Of a DNA stretch of 24,000 nucleotides, positions 675 to 17,926 are shown one piece after another. Location: assembly GCA_943371965.1 (NCBI GenBank), contig CALRWV020000001.1, positions 284,706 through 308,705 of the forward strand, read 5' to 3'. Source of the DNA: Prosthecochloris vibrioformis (lineage in GTDB: Bacteria > Bacteroidota > JABWAT01). How positions within the stretch are numbered: the first letter of the stretch is position 1; every line of letters begins with the position of its first letter. The notes under the pieces are model-generated. The model saw nothing but the letters and a program-made list of their open reading frames with translations, had not been told where the DNA came from and searched no databases. The position numbers were made by a program, and so were the translations under genes.

Positions 675-2858
675 ATGTTGGAAAAAGAAACAATTCAATA
701 TGACAATAAAATTGTCATGCAGTTTGCTGTTGCTGCAATAGTCTGGGGGATCGTAGGATTTCTGGTAGGACTGATTGTTGCCACAAAACTAATTTATCCG
801 GATTTTCTGGGATTCATTCCGGAATTTTCATATGGTCGGTTACGTCCATTACATACCAATGCTGTAATATTCGCATTTGTTGGAAATGGAATGTTCATGG
901 GAATTTACTATTCGCTTCAGAGACTTACCAAAGCGAGAATGTTCAGTGATAAATTGAGTGCGATCAATTTCTGGGGATGGCAGACCATTATTGTTGCAGC
1001 AGCCATAACACTTCCAATGGGATTGACTTCAAGCAAAGAGTACGCAGAACTTGAATGGCCGATTGATATTGCCATTGCCCTTATTTGGGTTGTTTTCGGC
1101 TGGAATATGTTTGGTACTTTATACAAACGCCGTGTGAAACACATGTATGTTGCAATCTGGTTTTATATAGCAACATTCTTAACGGTAGCAATGCTTCACA
1201 TTGTCAATTCATTTGAGCTTCCTGTCGGCATGTTTAAAAGTTACTCTATGTTTGCCGGAGTTCAGGATGCACTGGTTCAATGGTGGTACGGTCACAATGC
1301 AGTAGCCTTTTTCCTGACAACACCATTTCTGGGAATCATGTATTATTTCATTCCAAAAATATCAGGCCGTCCGGTGTTTTCTTATAGACTTTCAATTGTT
1401 CACTTCTGGGCTTTGATTTTTATTTACATTTGGGCTGGCCCCCATCACTTGTTATACACAGCGCTTCCCGGTTGGGCACAGGCTTTGGGAACAGTTTTCT
1501 CTATTATGCTGATTGCTCCTTCCTGGGGTGGTATGCTGAACGGATTGTTTACTTTGAGGGGAGCATGGGATAAAGTCCGGAGCGAACCATCACTTAAATT
1601 TCTGGTAGTTGGAGTTACAGCTTACGGTATGGCAACTTTTGAAGGACCAATGATGGCTTTGAAAAGTGTAAATGCCCTAACACATTACACCGATTATACC
1701 ATCGGTCACGTTCACATGGGAGCTTTAGGATGGAACGGCGGTTTGGTTTTTGCCATGCTTTATTATTTGATTCCAAAAATGTACGGAACTCAACTGTTCA
1801 GCAAAAAACTGGCATCCATCCATTTCTGGTTGGCTACCATGGGAATGCTGTTTTATGTGATTGCCATGTATTGGGCTGGAATTACACAGAGTCTGATGTG
1901 GAAGGAATTTACTTCTGAAGGAATGCTGAAGTATCCAAATTTCCTTGAAACAGTTACACAGCTTTTCCCAATGTACATTCTCCGTGCAATTGGCGGAACC
2001 ATGTATATTGTTGGTGCCTGCGTGATGATTTACAATCTTATAAAAACTGCAAAAAGCGGAGTATTTGTTTCAAACGAACAGGTTGAAGTTGCTCCATTGA
2101 TTGACGAAGAACATCCTGCAACTCCAGGTAAAAAAGAATATTTGCACAGAGCACTTGAATCAAAGGTTTTAGTTTTCAGTGTATTGGCATTTGTTGCAGT
2201 TGCGATTGGTGGATTGGTTCAGTTTATTCCGACCGCAGTTGTGAAATCAAATATTCCTTCCATTTCCGCTGTTAAACCTTACACACCACTCGAACTGGAA
2301 GGACGTGACATTTATATACGCGAAGGTTGCGTGGGATGTCACAGTCAGATGATTCGTCCGTTCAGAAGCGAAACCGAACGTTACGGTGAATATTCAAAAG
2401 CCGGAGAATTCGTTTATGATCATCCATTCCTTTGGGGTTCAAAACGGACTGGACCAGACCTTCAGCGTGAAGGCGGAAAATATGGTGATATCTGGCATTA
2501 TATGCACCTGAACGATCCGAGATCAACTTCTCCGGGATCTATCATGCCTTCTTATGCGTGGTTGTTAGACCATTCTTTGGATACAACCTATACCCTAGGC
2601 AAAATATCTGCAATGAGGACTCTGGGTGTTCCATATCCTGAAGGTTATGAAGCAACAGCAATGGCAGACCTTCACAAACAGGCAAATGAAATTACTTCAA
2701 ATATCAGGGAAGCCGGTTATGAAGAAAGTTCAGATAAAGAAGTTGTTGCACTCATTGCCTATTTGCAGAGATTAGGCAAAGACATCAAAGCTGATGCAAT
2801 GATACAGAGAGCCAACAAAAAAATTGTTGATACAACACAAAAACCTGAAAGTAAATAA
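675..2858 (+). CDS. ccoNO: cbb3-type cytochrome c oxidase, fused subunits I+II (CcoN-CcoO)
   Basis: 727 aa. The N-terminal ~470 aa are polytopic and carry CcoN strings (QWWYGHNAVAFFLT, PHHLLYT, IGHVHMGALGWNG). The C-terminal ~230 aa have one TM helix and a single heme-c site, CVGCHSQMIRP, typical of CcoO. Confidence 0.95.
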   Translation: MLEKETIQYDNKIVMQFAVAAIVWGIVGFLVGLIVATKLIYPDFLGFIPEFSYGRLRPLHTNAVIFAFVGNGMFMGIYYSLQRLTKARMFSDKLSAINFWGWQTIIVAAAITLPMGLTSSKEYAELEWPIDIAIALIWVVFGWNMFGTLYKRRVKHMYVAIWFYIATFLTVAMLHIVNSFELPVGMFKSYSMFAGVQDALVQWWYGHNAVAFFLTTPFLGIMYYFIPKISGRPVFSYRLSIVHFWALIFIYIWAGPHHLLYTALPGWAQALGTVFSIMLIAPSWGGMLNGLFTLRGAWDKVRSEPSLKFLVVGVTAYGMATFEGPMMALKSVNALTHYTDYTIGHVHMGALGWNGGLVFAMLYYLIPKMYGTQLFSKKLASIHFWLATMGMLFYVIAMYWAGITQSLMWKEFTSEGMLKYPNFLETVTQLFPMYILRAIGGTMYIVGACVMIYNLIKTAKSGVFVSNEQVEVAPLIDEEHPATPGKKEYLHRALESKVLVFSVLAFVAVAIGGLVQFIPTAVVKSNIPSISAVKPYTPLELEGRDIYIREGCVGCHSQMIRPFRSETERYGEYSKAGEFVYDHPFLWGSKRTGPDLQREGGKYGDIWHYMHLNDPRSTSPGSIMPSYAWLLDHSLDTTYTLGKISAMRTLGVPYPEGYEATAMADLHKQANEITSNIREAGYEESSDKEVVALIAYLQRLGKDIKADAMIQRANKKIVDTTQKPESK

Positions 2859-2867
2859 GGTAAGTTT

Positions 2868-3038
2868 ATGTTTAAAGAAGTTTTACAAAGCATTGATGGA
2901 GTGGCAGTTTTTCCTGTCATTTCCCTCGTTTTATTTTTCACTTTTTTTGTGTCGGTCTGTGTGATCTGGTTCCGCAAAGACAAAAAAACAGTTGATGAAT
3001 ATGCTCAGATTCCACTGGGCGAAACAGATAACCTATAA
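2868..3038 (+). CDS. ccoQ: CcoQ/FixQ-like small membrane subunit or assembly factor (56 aa); not in the ORF track
   Basis: Hand translation gives MFKEVLQSIDGVAVFPVISLVLFFTFFVSVCVIWFRKDKKTVDEYAQIPLGETDNL, with stop TAA at 3036-3038. It has a single TM helix and lies between ccoNO and ccoP. The IDGV..FP.ISL..FF.FF pattern matches my memory of Bacteroidota CcoQ-like proteins. Confidence 0.8.
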   Translation: MFKEVLQSIDGVAVFPVISLVLFFTFFVSVCVIWFRKDKKTVDEYAQIPLGETDNL

Positions 3039-3072
3039 ACAATTTTAAACTCTTTTTGAAAAGGAAAATACT

Positions 3073-3675
3073 ATGACGCCGGAAGAACAAGAAAAACTGA
3101 TGGATCATGAATATGATGGAATTCAGGAATTTGACAATAATCTGCCAGGATGGTGGACATATGGTTTCTATTTCTGTATCCTCTTCGCATTTGTCTACAT
3201 GATCATTTACTATGTTGTCGGATGGGCACCCGTTCAGGAAGGTGAATACAAGGAAGAGATGCAGACTGCCTACAATCAGTACAAACTGACTCCTTCATTT
3301 CTGAACACATCTGGTTTATCGTATGATGTTGATGCAACGTTTGAACTTCTGAAAGATGAAGAAGCAATTGCTGCAGGAAAATCAATTTTCACATCCAACA
3401 AATCATTATGCTATACCTGTCACGGTCCTGAAGGACAGGGACTTGTTGGACCGAATTTGACAGATGAGTATTGGAGAAACGGCTGTGATGTAAAACAGAT
3501 TGCAAAAAACATAACAACCGGGTTTCCAATCAAAGGAATGGTTCCGTTTGGAAGTGGTCAGAAATTGAGTGCCAAGGAGTTGAACCAAGTGGTGGCATTT
3601 TTGTATTCGATCAGAGGGTCAAACCCGGCGAATCCAAAACCAATCGACCCAACGCGTGATATCAAATGCCAGTAA
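3073..3675 (+). CDS. ccoP: cbb3-type cytochrome c oxidase subunit III (CcoP/FixP), monoheme form
   Basis: It has the FixP N-terminal signature HEYDGIQEFDNNLPGWW plus a TM helix. There is one CXXCH (CYTCHG) with a downstream Met (KGMVPF), and no second CXXCH in the 200 aa. An AAGGA motif lies upstream of the ATG. Confidence 0.9.
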   Translation: MTPEEQEKLMDHEYDGIQEFDNNLPGWWTYGFYFCILFAFVYMIIYYVVGWAPVQEGEYKEEMQTAYNQYKLTPSFLNTSGLSYDVDATFELLKDEEAIAAGKSIFTSNKSLCYTCHGPEGQGLVGPNLTDEYWRNGCDVKQIAKNITTGFPIKGMVPFGSGQKLSAKELNQVVAFLYSIRGSNPANPKPIDPTRDIKCQ

Positions 3676-3851
3676 CAGTTAACTTCAGTTAAATAAAATA
3701 TGGACCGTCTTGAAAGAGGTGCAGTTTTTTTAAAGATTAGTTGGTTTGGGTATCAGCAAGTTGATATTTGAATTGATTCTGCATCTTTCCATCCCCCCGG
3801 AAAATGCATAAAAATCTTTTGGGACAGTCCGTTTAATAAAGCAAAATAAAA

Positions 3852-5264
3852 ATGAGTGATTATTCGAATAAAGATGAATCCTTCAGAGATCATCTCGCTA
3901 CCGCAGATGTAACCGGAAAAAGAAAATGGATTTTCCCCAAAAAACCTTCCGGATTTTACCACAATGCAAGAGCTATTGTTGCTGTAATTTTATTGGGTTT
4001 CTTTTTCCTTTCACCGTTTGTTGAACTTCATGGTCATCAAATGGTTCAGTTCAATTTCATTGACAGAATTTTCATCATCTTCGGTGTTGTTTTCTGGCCG
4101 CAGGATTTTTTCATCTTTGCAATTGCACTTCTTGTTTTTTTGCTTTTCATCGTAACATTTACCAGTATTTTTGGTCGGCTGTGGTGTGGATGGGCATGTC
4201 CGCAAACTATCTTCATGGAAATGGTTTTCAGAAAAATTGAATATTTCATTGAAGGAGATTATGTAAAACAAAAAGCATTGACTGCAATGAAATGGAATCT
4301 GGAAAAAATTGTTAAGCGGCTGGGGAAACATGCCATTTTCTTTTTCATTTCCTTCTTAATTGCAAATACTTTTCTCGCTTATATTATTGGTAAGGAAGCA
4401 CTTTTCAAAATTGTAACTGAACCGGTGGAAATGCATATCAGTGGATTTACATCATTGACTATTTTTTCGTTTGTATTTTATCTGGTTTATGCACGTTTCC
4501 GTGAGCAGGCCTGTATTGTTGTTTGTCCTTATGGAAGATTTCAATCCGTTATTGTTGATGACAAAACGATTGCCGTTACGTATGATTTTGTCCGTGGCGA
4601 ACCACGCGGGGTTCAAAGCAAAGAAGAAATGAAATTGAATGCAAATCCGAAAGGTGATTGTGTCGATTGTCATCAATGTGTTAGAGTATGTCCGACCGGA
4701 ATCGATATCAGGAACGGAATTCAGCTTGAATGTGTAAACTGTACAGCCTGTATTGATGCGTGTGATGATATCATGACAAAAGTGAAAAAGCCGAAAGGTC
4801 TCATCCGTTATGCTTCGTATGAAAACATTGTCAAAGGCACCAAATTTCATTTGAATTTCAGAAATATTGCATACATGACCGTTTTGAGCATATTGTCACT
4901 TATTCTTGTATTTATATTTATGGGACGTCAGGATTTTGATGCTTTGGTTTTAAGACAGCCGGGAACTATTTTCCAGCAGTATGATTCAACCAGATATTCA
5001 AATCTGTATAATTTTACACTCAGCAATAAAGCATACACTGATCTGGACGGAACATTGGAAGTTGTTGGAATTCCCGCAGAAATTAAATTTCTGAATACCA
5101 AAACGCCGGTAACCTCGCAAAAACTGATTGAGTTCAAAGTTTTTATTATCATTGATAAAAAATATTTGAAACCAAATGCCAACGATTTGAAACTTTTGTT
5201 TACCACCGGTACCGGAGAAACAAAAAAACTGAAAACTGAATTTATAGCACCAGCAAAGTTGTGA
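3852..5264 (+). CDS. ccoG: CcoG/FixG/RdxA-type 4Fe-4S membrane ferredoxin (cbb3 assembly, cupric reductase family)
   Basis: 470 aa with TM helices. It carries the LWCGWACPQT motif, two ferredoxin clusters (CVDCHQCVRVCP and CVNCTACIDAC) and a C-terminal beta-rich domain. Confidence 0.92.
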   Translation: MSDYSNKDESFRDHLATADVTGKRKWIFPKKPSGFYHNARAIVAVILLGFFFLSPFVELHGHQMVQFNFIDRIFIIFGVVFWPQDFFIFAIALLVFLLFIVTFTSIFGRLWCGWACPQTIFMEMVFRKIEYFIEGDYVKQKALTAMKWNLEKIVKRLGKHAIFFFISFLIANTFLAYIIGKEALFKIVTEPVEMHISGFTSLTIFSFVFYLVYARFREQACIVVCPYGRFQSVIVDDKTIAVTYDFVRGEPRGVQSKEEMKLNANPKGDCVDCHQCVRVCPTGIDIRNGIQLECVNCTACIDACDDIMTKVKKPKGLIRYASYENIVKGTKFHLNFRNIAYMTVLSILSLILVFIFMGRQDFDALVLRQPGTIFQQYDSTRYSNLYNFTLSNKAYTDLDGTLEVVGIPAEIKFLNTKTPVTSQKLIEFKVFIIIDKKYLKPNANDLKLLFTTGTGETKKLKTEFIAPAKL

Positions 5265-8926: not shown

Positions 8927-8929
8927 TCA

Positions 8930-9130
8930 CCCTCACCTTAATCTCAGCCTGAGGCTGATCTGCCTTTGGCATGACTCTCCCGTCAAGGGAGAGGAGATGC
9001 TTAAAAACTTTTAGTTTTCAAGAAAAAATGCAAACATGAAAAAACAAGATTGGTAACCAACAAATTAATTATTATGGAAACGAGTTCCCATATTTCCTCT
9101 CCCCTTTGCGGGAGAGGACTAAGGTGAGGG
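8930..9130. repeat. MITE-like element copy A (201 bp): 14-bp terminal inverted repeats, palindrome, two GC-rich hairpins
   Basis: Left end is CCCTCACCTTAATC (8930-8943). Right end is GACTAAGGTGAGGG (9117-9130), a 13/14 reverse complement. Inside are the palindrome TCAGCCT-G-AGGCTGA (8944-8958) and two hairpins: CTCTCCC-GTCAA-GGGAGAG (8975-8993) and CCTCTCCC-CTTTGC-GGGAGAGG (9096-9117). Confidence 0.8.
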
Positions 9131-9162
9131 GAAATAAAAATCAACGCAACCAAGAGGTGTAA

Positions 9163-9510
9163 ATGAACCTAACACCAATTGCCAGAAAACTCAGAAAATC
9201 ATCAACTCCACATGAACGGATACTCTGGAAACACCTGAGAAATGCAAATCTCGATGGAATCAAATTCAGAAGACAGCAGCCAATTGATCATTACATCGTT
9301 GATTTTGTCAGCTTTGAGATCCGGTTGATCATTGAGTTGGATGGAAGTCAGCATTTTGAAAATGAATCAGACAAAATCAGGGACGAATATTTGACTCAAA
9401 ATAAATTCAGAATACTCCGTTTCTGGAACAATGAGATTACTGAAAATCTGGATAATGTACTTCAGAAAATATGGTCTGAATGTGAAAAGCTGAAATCTCC
9501 CTCACCTTAA
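9163..9510 (+). CDS. DUF559 endonuclease-domain protein (Vsr-like, PD-(D/E)xK fold)
   Basis: 115 aa. The pattern ARKLRK..T..E..LW..LRN....G.KFRRQ.PI..YIVDF.......IELDG.QH......D..R...L......ILRFWNNE is the classic DUF559 pattern. GAGGTG at 9154-9159 precedes the ATG. The last four codons and the stop (CCC TCA CCT TAA) lie inside the left TIR of element B. Confidence 0.9.
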   Translation: MNLTPIARKLRKSSTPHERILWKHLRNANLDGIKFRRQQPIDHYIVDFVSFEIRLIIELDGSQHFENESDKIRDEYLTQNKFRILRFWNNEITENLDNVLQKIWSECEKLKSPSP

Positions 9511-9824
9511 TCTCAGCCTAAGGCTGATCTGCCTTTGGCATGACTCTCCCGTCAAGGGAGAGGAGATACTTAAAAACTTTCAGTTTTCAAGAAAAAATGC
9601 AAATATGAAAAAACAAGATTGGGAACCAACAAATTAATTATTATTGAAACGAATTCTCAGATCTTCTCTCCCGACAAGGGAGAGGAGATACTTAAAAACT
9701 TTCAGTTTTTATGAAAATACAGCAAATTTAAAAAAACGAGGTTGCAAATAAATAAGATATTTTTTATGGAAGCTGGTACCCAAAAATTTCCTCTCCCCTG
9801 AGCGGGAGAGGATTAAGGTGAGGG
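9499..9824. repeat. MITE-like element copy B (326 bp): perfect 14-bp TIRs, palindrome, three GC-rich hairpins, duplicated internal module
   Basis: Left end CCCTCACCTTAATC (9499-9512) and right end GATTAAGGTGAGGG (9811-9824) are 14/14 reverse complements. 9499-9659 aligns to 8930-9090 at a constant offset of 569 with 8 substitutions. Hairpins lie at 9544-9562, 9666-9684 and 9790-9811, and the palindrome at 9513-9527. Confidence 0.8.
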
Positions 9825-9857
9825 GTTCCTTTATTCTTGGAAGTACTTTCAAATTGA

Positions 9858-17362: not shown

Positions 17363-17870
17363 AACTTTTTTTGGTTCCTGGTACAAAAAACAGATTCATT
17401 CAAGCACAGAATTTTATTCATTTTTTGATAAGTATGAATAAACAGGAAAGAAAACAAATATTTACAGATTTTCACCCAACTGCCTCATCTGATTTTTTAG
17501 TTTCAACAATCGGTTTTTTGATATCAATATCTTGTGCTCCAAAATTAATATTGTATAGGAAACACAAAATGGTTTTTCTAAGTCCACCCATTAAATAATT
17601 CGTGACCATGTAGCAAAATCATACTCCAACACTCAAATCATGCTGCCAAAGTAAGAACCTTTAACATCAATAACAACTGCAGGACATTGTGAAATGAAAA
17701 CAGGATCAAGTAAATTTAAACCGGCGGGAAACTAAAAAATCACCGAACATTTGGGAAGTAGTCAATTCAGGTTTGCAACAAATTCACAGATTTCAATTCG
17801 TACCAACATTCATTGTTTTAATTCGTGAATCTCCCGAAATATCAGGACAAGATGTGGCAATTTTTTGAAA

Positions 17871-17926
17871 CCCCACCCTCCCATAGGGATGCCTATGGCA
17901 TAACCCTCCCCGATTTCGGGGAGGGG
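17871..17926 (-). terminator. GC-rich double hairpin immediately downstream of the DUF1569 gene; possible terminator and/or degenerate relative of the 8930-9824 elements
   Basis: The sequence is CCCCACCCTC (17871-17880), then hairpin CCATAGG-GATG-CCTATGG (17881-17898), then hairpin CCCTCCCC-GATTTC-GGGGAGGG (17904-17925). The upstream gene's stop codon is at 17936-17938. On the minus strand the structure is followed by GGGGTTTCAAAAAATT. Confidence 0.45.

Follow-up and report, generated by a model that had tools for sequence, protein, structure and literature searches.

The intergenic repeat known as BoxC (Bergler 1992), PIT element (Hoyne & Maher 2000, 2002) or TM_ECO (Holder et al. 2015), the two earlier names as cited by Holder et al. 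(PMC4666352), has the TM_ECO consensus CCCTCNCCC-N3-6-GGGNGAGGG-N3-GGGNGAGGG, in which the second loop is TTA (type A) or CCG (type B). The motif occurs in more than 260 genomes, with 23 copies in Escherichia coli MG1655, five in inverted pairs, and a single strand of it folds in vitro as a hairpin plus third strand into a very stable intrastrand triplex; PIT/TM sequences also block DNA polymerase in vitro (PMC4666352). TM sites show no correlation with the functions of neighbouring genes, a transposase or integrase was never found near them, and they are hot spots of rearrangement and local genomic instability, the mechanism of which was called ‘unclear’ (PMC4666352). Holder et al. present the function and origin of the motif, known since 1992, as unexplained, and they cite Hoyne and Maher for an absence of promoter or terminator activity in PIT elements (PMC4666352). 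Here we analysed a 24,000-nucleotide (nt) stretch of the Prosthecochloris vibrioformis genome (the window), in which this repeat flanks a gene for a DUF559 nuclease. This locus represents a single copy of a compact cassette that is widespread and is made of a DUF559 gene of about 340 nt within inverted half-modules of about 40 nt of the BoxC/PIT/TM_ECO type.

REP/RAYT systems (REPtrons, REPIN-RAYT) share with this locus a single-copy nuclease-type gene, inverted short hairpin repeats, and a repeat that is commoner elsewhere, singly and in inverted pairs. They differ in that REP sequences are species-specific, whereas window-type modules keep exact 20-mers across phyla. They also differ in their enzyme. 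RAYT is an HUH/Y1 transposase of the IS200/IS605 type that forms a covalent link with DNA, whereas DUF559 is a Vsr-fold PD-(D/E)xK hydrolase, and its spread therefore cannot follow the same chemistry. The initial annotation of this DNA had compared the locus to a REPtron. That comparison holds for the logic of one nuclease gene, inverted flanking repeats and a repeat that is commoner without the gene, but membership is ruled out because the enzyme is not an HUH transposase. The finding is real, REPtron-like in logic, and not a REPtron.

The best characterised structural match of the nuclease lies among the EDxHD Vsr-fold homing endonucleases, in I-Bth0305I (PDB 3R3P), which is likewise a selfish small nuclease gene that is polymorphic for presence and absence. 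Unlike the DUF559 cassette, which is free-standing and intergenic and has a dispersed repeat rather than a conserved gene as its candidate target, I-Bth0305I is encoded within a phage group I intron and possesses an additional region for binding DNA. Vsr and the Caulobacter protein VsrA share fold and family with the window protein. VsrA, the subject of the only functional study of a DUF559 protein, provokes the SOS response and DNA damage in vivo, showing that a DUF559 protein can damage DNA there; it is chromosomal and SOS-induced, with a proposed mismatch-repair role (PMC12907096). Vsr and VsrA have been interpreted as enzymes that repair T:G mismatches in connection with cytosine methylation, whereas the window has no methyltransferase, and a repeat link is unreported for them. 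Other homologues are E. coli YcjD (NF007294, E=5.9e-24 for the window protein) and Neisseria gonorrhoeae NGO0050 (PDB 3HRL, E=1.7e-36, family profile A1), and the loci of both carry modules; the window protein is no equivalog of YcjD, scoring 84 bits against a cut-off of 218.

The core of the cassette spans 9091 to 9567 on the plus strand. It opens with a complete R-type half-module (9091..9135), a BoxC/PIT/TM type A variant composed of Y (CCTCTCCC), the loop CTTTGC, y' (GGGAGAGGA), the linker CTA and x' (AGGTGAGGG(G)). This half-module matches covariance model R1 at 45.6 bits (E=3e-11) and lies 27 nt from the DUF559 start codon. The gene (9163..9510) encodes a 115-residue Vsr-fold PD-(D/E)xK nuclease, and its last four codons and stop codon are read from the X block of the L-type half-module that follows (9496..9567). 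The latter comprises X at 9499-9512, a 31-nt insertion at 9513-9543, the hairpin CTCTCCC-GTCAAG-GGGAGAG at 9544-9562 and the sequence GAGAT. The open reading frame (ORF) had been assigned to DUF559 beforehand, and this is borne out by its match to PF04480 (E=1.2e-39) over profile positions 2-108 of 109, at 135 bits against a cut-off of 20.6; the only other Pfam match was REase_MTES_1575.

The repeat is the BoxC/PIT/TM_ECO intrastrand-triplex motif. A half-module consists of a C-rich arm, a loop, a G-rich arm that pairs with the first, TTA, and a second G-rich block that mirrors the first G-rich one. The published consensus matched modules across 200 fetched loci, and a covariance model built from those modules gave the window modules 46 bits. 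In the related loci, the third block mirrored its own purine arm in 149 of 183 modules, compared with 33 (maximum 48) when partners were shuffled, and this purine-motif mirror rule held at 9/9 positions, x' against y', in both complete window modules. The initial annotation had likened the elements to miniature inverted-repeat transposable elements (MITEs) bounded by terminal inverted repeats (TIRs). They are not a novel MITE whose TIRs are of the transposase type. Since the third block mirrors its own purine arm, the ‘TIR’ CCCTCACC is instead the third-strand block of the known triplex motif (PMC4666352). The hairpin arms also covary, with 31 double-change cells against 10.2 in shuffles and none of 500 shuffles reaching the observed value, in a test that is partly circular because seeds were picked for perfect stems. 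These computed data for the window and related modules agree with the structural constraint; the triplex itself is predicted from sequence. No Rfam family matched at a sensible score.

Within the window, the blocks CCTCTCCC / GGGAGAGGA / AGGTGAGGG occur at 9096-9131 and 9790-9825 with loops of 6 and 3 nt. Like BoxC/PIT/TM_ECO, the window repeats have a three-block architecture with a TTA second loop and inverted pairs with 14-27-nt spacers, and they are intergenic; E. coli copy #9 likewise adjoins ycjD. They differ in being AT-adapted (GGGAGAGGA / AGGTGAGGG), and two L-type copies carry the 31-nt insertion between X and hairpin. The window modules are an AT-adapted variant in that they miss the published regular expression by one G-to-A change at block ends. 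A further difference is that the literature treats BoxC/PIT/TM_ECO as an orphan repeat without an associated protein, whereas the window repeats accompany DUF559. Four other identities for the repeat were considered and rejected. A G-quadruplex from the four G-tracts was excluded by Holder et al. by nuclear magnetic resonance in favour of the triplex (PMC4666352). The loop TTGAC as a -35 box has no matching -10 box, and the promoter scan was at or below chance. Pairing of X and x' as mRNA 5'-3' ends or as an anti-Shine-Dalgarno sequence is countered by the frequent difference between upstream and downstream variants within one cassette. For an integron attC or Xer-like site, the core sequences mismatch and the arms covary freely.

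The association between gene and repeat was measured in 80 metagenomic loci of the window protein's DUF559 clade, with modules detected by the union of nhmmer at a relaxed threshold and a structural hairpin-pattern search, as nhmmer alone under-detected them. A half-module was present upstream in 64 of 71 loci, downstream in 66 of 74 and on both sides in 54 of 65; most loci scored as lacking a module held visibly degraded copies, and a covariance-model search of the loci gave a similar picture, judged by eye. The modules are in inverted orientation and their junction to the gene is fixed. Upstream, the order is C-arm, CTTGAC-like loop, G-arm, TTA, GGGTGRGGGTGA and then 5-25 nt to the ATG; downstream, it is TCACCCYCNCC, TAA, C-arm, GTCAAG-like loop and G-arm. 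The inner gap between the modules of a cassette measures 323-466 nt. Conversely, among convergent module pairs 150-2500 nt apart, 44 of 50 enclose DUF559 and the other six enclose ordinary genes at other spacings; no other recurring cargo was seen inside these 50 pairs. The same pattern was found for ycjD of E. coli K-12 and in Deinococcus, Synechocystis, Azospirillum and Neisseria. The association proposed in the initial annotation is real, non-random and deeply conserved.

The enzyme family and the repeat were each known before; the link between them appears to be new and is conserved across phyla. We found no description of it in the literature: the main text of Holder et al. mentions neither ycjD nor DUF559 nor any endonuclease, and their supplementary table lists ycjD merely as a neighbour (PMC4666352).

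Because the gene-repeat junction is fixed and the repeat is translated, many DUF559 proteins end in “SPSP/SPTP...GGG” tails. Read-through tails (SPTPQPPPARGGG, SPSPLPLPSREG) in one fixed reading frame end about 70% of the best 120 homologues, which accounts for the odd Pro/Ser/Gly/Glu tails that the initial annotation mentioned for DUF559 ORFs elsewhere. The tail-bearing homologues come from Geobacter-like, Nitrospirota, Omnitrophota, Desulfobacterales and other sources, and many start with MGEAA. Many DUF559 entries in protein databases thus have spurious ends, both C-terminal tails (SPTPQPPPARGGG..., HPPLNPLPSREGK) and extensions at the N terminus (MGEAA, PLPLWEGGGGG), that are translated flanking repeat, a systematic annotation artefact.

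Several loci showed more elaborate arrangements. Half-modules cluster within a few kb of DUF559 at L133 (about 1046-3980), with more than 15 model matches, and at L125, with about 10. Locus L180 contains two cassettes whose proteins are 69% identical to each other. In N. gonorrhoeae (L225, 1280-1883), plus- and minus-strand modules alternate with a 281-nt period 3' of an NGO0050-type DUF559 gene.

The repeat is far more frequent than the gene. The exact 20-mer GGAGAGGAYTAAGGTGAGGG, common to both complete window modules, was found at no fewer than 120 genome loci, against about 2 expected by our own estimate, and among the matches listed these loci span Chloroflexota, Verrucomicrobiota, Planctomycetota, Omnitrophota, Nitrospinota, Flavobacteriia and others. 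Among the same matches, DUF559 directly abuts 5 of 124 modules, leaving 119 without an adjoining DUF559 gene; no family was more recurrent than DUF559 among their 502 neighbouring ORFs, the other three-member clusters being housekeeping only. Modules occur in four forms: singly, in convergent pairs separated by 10-50 nt, as one long palindrome, and as X-hairpin...hairpin-x' units like element A of the window (described below). The solo half-module is the commonest form. Modules are intergenic and, relative to neighbouring genes, only slightly over-represented at gene ends. The dispersal and inverted pairing typical of the triplex motif were thus seen in other genomes, and the window itself holds one additional copy, at 17871-17925.

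The unit as a whole is present or absent at orthologous sites, as is the case for homing endonucleases, in Deinococcus, in E. coli and at the GH97 junction of the source genus, where the far flank is not syntenic. In Deinococcus psychrotolerans, DUF559 lies between paaD and paaZ within perfect inverted repeats of about 55 bp, each made of a module and a few bases; the paaD-paaZ intergenic region measures 521 nt there but 83 nt, without the cassette, in Deinococcus sp. QL22. The GH97 junction was compared in relatives, as suggested by the initial annotation. Three relatives of the source organism, whose GH97 is 85-88% identical, keep upstream synteny to the GH97 stop codon and lack the gene and intact modules, but the far flank is not syntenic. 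The sequence 3' of GH97 is an ordinary terminator in two of them, and one may hold a decayed copy. On the other side, the lipoprotein neighbour had only one homologue, on a 754-bp contig, where homology stops at the stop codon and the next gene differs, giving no clean empty site. Candidate empty sites are gene-less H-x'/X-H pairs, and no closely related filled and empty pair was recovered.

Two observations concern these junctions. Synteny with congeners (L202-L205, L201) stops exactly at the GH97 stop codon and, on the other side, at the lipoprotein stop codon; the cassette therefore sits at a rearrangement junction, which fits the published instability of triplex motifs. Right after the GH97 stop codon of relative L202 (8165-8215), the sequence TCTTACCTT...GACTCTCCCAACTGCGGGAAGG resembles an X block and its hairpin in a decayed state, at a position equal to 8927-8998 of the window.

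E. coli provides the polymorphism at population scale. The C terminus of K-12 YcjD, a DUF559 protein, reads ...RSPSP*, and a full module, TM_ECO #9, lies 165 nt 3' of ycjD; the upstream module is degenerate, and the gene is confined to a single polymorphic locus. At the sapF-fabI site, ycjD and its TM alternate with the eefRABCD operon (PMC12817139), and an eef+ strain showed no module there. The ycjD allele was present in 3378 of 5426 E. coli genomes, in one copy each. Three further features were noted at this site. Between ycjD and TM_ECO #9 of K-12 (L206, 2290-2400) lies a second, truncated ycjD 3' end (GGAGACGGTGCTGGAGAATATTC..CTGAACCG..) that seems to be left over from a duplicated or second cassette. 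The GTG start codon of ycjD is part of the 3' arm of a palindrome, CACCTCATYCTGA...TCAGRATGAGGTG, in the sapF terminator (L206, 2761-2810; L221, 1100-1150). Both alleles, ycjD and eef, have this palindrome, and its arms look like degenerate X/x' blocks.

The catalytic residues of the protein are conserved. All family-invariant residues are present (D47, E58, D60, Q63, H64, R86, W88, N89 and N90), and the AF2 model has a pLDDT of 88.7. Foldseek ranked 3HRL, the uncharacterised NGO0050, first, followed by the catalytic domain of I-Bth0305I (E=1.6e-4, TM 0.63-0.80), with Vsr at E=0.09; I-Bth0305I was ahead of Vsr at the sequence level too (hmmsearch E=0.015). On the predicted model, the closest characterised fold is that of this homing endonuclease.

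Outside the core, the window contains further half-modules and AT-rich filler, giving the two ‘TIR-bounded elements’ A and B of the initial annotation. Both are composites of a 3' half-module, AT-rich filler and a 5' half-module, and the recurring unit is the half-module of about 40 nt. Element A begins with the C-rich third-strand X block of an L-type half-module, TCA-CCCTCACC-TTAATC (8927..8943, plus strand like the features below other than the fillers), directly 3' of the GH97 stop codon; the same TCA-X-TAA design occurs at DUF559 gene flanks elsewhere and in the E. coli TM pair #1/#2. A lineage-specific 31-nt insertion (8944..8974), formed by the palindrome TCAGCCTGAGGCTGA (8944-8958) and the mini-hairpin TGCCTTTGGCA (8961-8971), separates X from its hairpin and recurs in the cassette L-type half-module; canonical modules at other loci lack it. 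The hairpin CTCTCCC-GTCAAG-GGGAGAG + GAGAT (8975..8998), a covariance-model match of 22.7 bits on the minus strand, is marked as L orientation by its GTCAAG loop, which is also the loop of downstream hairpins in DUF559 cassettes of other phyla. It is followed by AT-rich filler (8999..9090), a copy of which was not found in any related locus, and by the R-type half-module of the core. Element B is element A plus an internal tandem copy, of about 122 nt, of hairpin and spacer. Its filler (9568..9784) consists of an AT-rich spacer (9568-9659), one more hairpin, CTCTCCC-GACAAG-GGGAGAG (9666-9684), and another spacer that has diverged; comparable arrays of hairpins follow DUF559 at loci L133, L166 and L186. 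A complete R-type half-module closes element B (9785..9829; R1 45.9 bits, E=2.7e-11). The terminator-like scan gave a single site for the lipoprotein gene, on the minus strand at 9789-9812, where the hairpin of this right-hand module has AATTTTTGGG after it; the repeat may be a co-opted terminator.

A third, diverged L-type element (17871..17925) combines X (CCCCACCCTCCC), an insertion with ATGCCTATGGCAT at 17883-17903 that is related to the 31-nt one, and the hairpin CCCTCCCC-GATTTC-GGGGAGGG, and gives weak R1 matches. It lies between the ORFs that end at 17386 and 17936, away from any DUF559 gene; all repeat copies in the window are intergenic. The lineage-specific insertion ‘ATGCCnnnGGCA’ is common to this element and to the copies at 8961-8971 and 9530-9540, which suggests a genome-specific sub-family.

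Most of what had been seen directly in the sequence was reproduced. The inverted ends are CCCTCACCTTAATC at 8930 and 9499 on the plus strand, with its reverse complement at 9117-9130 (13/14) and 9811-9824 (14/14); the window has 4 matches to it against 0.18 expected, a number reached in 0 of 100 shuffles. Positions 8930-9090 and 9499-9659, at a 569-nt offset, differ by exactly eight substitutions. The five CTCTCCC-N-GGGAGAG hairpins, of which none is expected by chance, and the TCAGCCT-N-AGGCTGA palindrome of both copies are where they had been placed. Folding as single-stranded DNA, a check that had been recommended, gave z=-5.8 for element A and z=-7.9 for element B relative to shuffles. No transposase or integrase domain was found in window ORFs of at least 100 residues, and the unit does fill the space between two convergent genes, from the GH97 stop (8926) to the lipoprotein stop (9858). 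The claim that these are the most GC-rich sequences of the window did not hold: the region has 34-40% GC at the 300-nt scale, below the GH97 gene, and at the 40-nt scale the hairpin parts merely tie with many coding segments, at 0.60-0.62.

The reading that we consider evenly poised between right and wrong is that of a selfish nuclease-plus-repeat system, a functional nuclease-repeat partnership with REPtron-like logic, a Vsr-fold enzyme and triplex-forming repeats. It draws on the identity of the repeat, the association in both directions and in independent isolates, the presence or absence of the cassette as a unit, the nuclease fold, the module numbers in E. coli and the published instability of TM sites. 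Half-modules would fold in single-stranded DNA, for example during replication, transcription or repair, and then stall polymerases. The DUF559 nuclease would recognise the folded module or module pair and nick or cut beside it, after which host recombination and repair, templated by another copy, would copy, delete or rearrange modules and occasionally the whole cassette. Gene-less half-modules and pairs would represent the non-autonomous population, and the cassette the autonomous or source copy. The logic proposed here follows REP/RAYT or free-standing homing endonucleases, except that the enzyme is another one and the repeat is triplex-forming, and the model would account for the instability of TM sites, which is so far unexplained. 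An action of the nuclease on the hairpins, as first proposed in the initial annotation, is something we infer. The DUF559 nuclease is the first candidate protein partner of BoxC/PIT/TM repeats. A broader and more tentative proposition, for which we hold a little less than even confidence, is that DUF559/YcjD-type nucleases are dedicated partners of BoxC/PIT/TM, forming a hitherto unrecognised, pan-bacterial class of selfish elements of nuclease and structured repeat, with REPtron-like population logic and homing-endonuclease-like chemistry, and that they are the cause of the instability of triplex sites.

A number of observations weigh against such a partnership. A PD-(D/E)xK nuclease alone cannot transpose DNA, and the binding and cutting of modules by DUF559 are predictions. 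Modules persist in lineages without the gene, O157 lineages among them, which keep about 12 TM copies without ycjD. The copy-number correlation in E. coli, which speaks for the partnership, is confounded by phylogroup: in a sample of 60 evenly spaced genomes, ycjD+ strains had a median of 16 other TM-like places (n=37) and ycjD- strains 3 (n=23; Mann-Whitney p=2e-9), which is suggestive only, because the ycjD groups are phylogroups. The gene is single-copy where it can be counted (one place per genome in E. coli) and the nearest relative of the window protein is 64% identical, so the gene itself is not proliferating. The flanks have the orientation H-x' gene X-H in the window, the metagenomic set and E. 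coli pairs, but X-H gene H-x' in Deinococcus and Synechocystis, and the existence of two orientations leaves the mechanistic ends of the cassette undefined. Within one cassette, the upstream module is often of a different variant from the downstream one. Target-site duplications were not evident at 8927/9830 or at the Deinococcus junctions, in an analysis limited by flank divergence. Finally, triplex formation in vivo was not detected (PMC4666352). The two orientation types, with either the third-strand block or the hairpin facing the gene (L223, L224 versus L121-L200), appear to be split by DUF559 sub-clade.

The modules could instead be cis-regulatory or insulating flanks of DUF559, a potentially toxic host Vsr-like repair nuclease whose expression they would control by blocking read-through, shaping mRNA ends or providing or masking a ribosome-binding site, the dispersed modules being unrelated. 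At most loci x' (GGGTGGGGGTGA) is Shine-Dalgarno-like and ends 5-25 nt before the start codon, the cassette interior is too small for a promoter, and module B, on the minus strand, resembles a terminator of the lipoprotein gene; Caulobacter VsrA, a DUF559 protein that is chromosomal, induced in the SOS response and proposed to serve mismatch repair, offers a precedent (PMC12907096). We nevertheless find this explanation unlikely. The window gene possesses a Shine-Dalgarno sequence of its own, 33 nt beyond x', PIT elements had neither promoter nor terminator activity in the work of Hoyne and Maher as cited in PMC4666352, and regulation explains neither the dispersal of gene-less modules, nor the joint gain and loss of gene and flanks at orthologous sites, nor the occurrence of both flank orientations.

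It is more doubtful still that gene and repeat are only passively co-located, with modules as fragile recombinogenic sites that capture small genes and DUF559 as a common passenger, or as an inserter via host functions, without an enzymatic tie to them. TM sites are rearrangement hot spots (PMC4666352), synteny breaks 3' of GH97 in the source genus, and 119 of the 124 modules among the matches listed have no adjoining DUF559, as such capture would predict. A passenger should not, however, be joined to the repeat at a junction fixed to the nucleotide and reading frame across phyla. Nor does passive capture sit well with the 83-90% of clade genes that are flanked, with a near-exclusive cargo (44/50 pairs, the remaining 6 with ordinary genes at other spacings), or with the absence of a more recurrent family beside the modules.

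We give little credence to a caretaker nuclease, in which DUF559 would help the host clear triplex or hairpin replication blocks and would be linked to the modules in an addiction-like manner, since these would be harmful without the gene. The in vitro block to DNA polymerase (PMC4666352), a single-copy gene under purifying selection and the greater number of module copies tolerated by ycjD+ E. coli would fit this role. However, many lineages retain modules without the gene (about 12 in O157; B2 strains have 1-3, with 2 TM-like places in strains such as UTI89 and Nissle), and the gene is interrupted in 3 of the 80 metagenomic copies. Cassettes are also rare on plasmids and phages, and vehicle-driven co-transfer is therefore not obvious. 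As vehicles, phages and plasmids were discarded, with 14 relatives in 2.9 million viral contigs and 38 in 72,556 plasmid records, mostly megaplasmids or mislabelled chromosomes.

That elements A and B are literal MITEs, non-autonomous transposons with a transposase encoded elsewhere and DUF559 incidental, is highly improbable: they have inverted ends and fold end-to-end, and X-H...H-x' architectures recur in other genomes, but of the hallmarks of a MITE (TIRs, target-site duplications and a transposase parent) only inverted ends were found, with no evident target-site duplication and no transposase in the window or, in published surveys, near TM sites (PMC4666352), while solo half-modules are the commonest form and the ‘TIR’ changes together with the hairpin arm beside it, whose mirror repeat it is, as expected of a structural motif and not of a transposase binding site.

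BoxC/PIT/TM repeats have been known for thirty years and are present in hundreds of bacterial genomes; they are among the most stable non-B DNA structures and are rearrangement hot spots, and so far they have come without an attached protein, a mobility mechanism or a function. DUF559, for its part, ranks among the commonest nuclease families without a known function, with ycjD as its E. coli K-12 member. Read-through of the repeat accounts for a widespread annotation artefact, the Pro/Ser...Gly tails and ‘MGEAA’ starts of DUF559 proteins. If true, the link between nuclease and repeat would give each of them a candidate function, and the question would become testable in E. coli.

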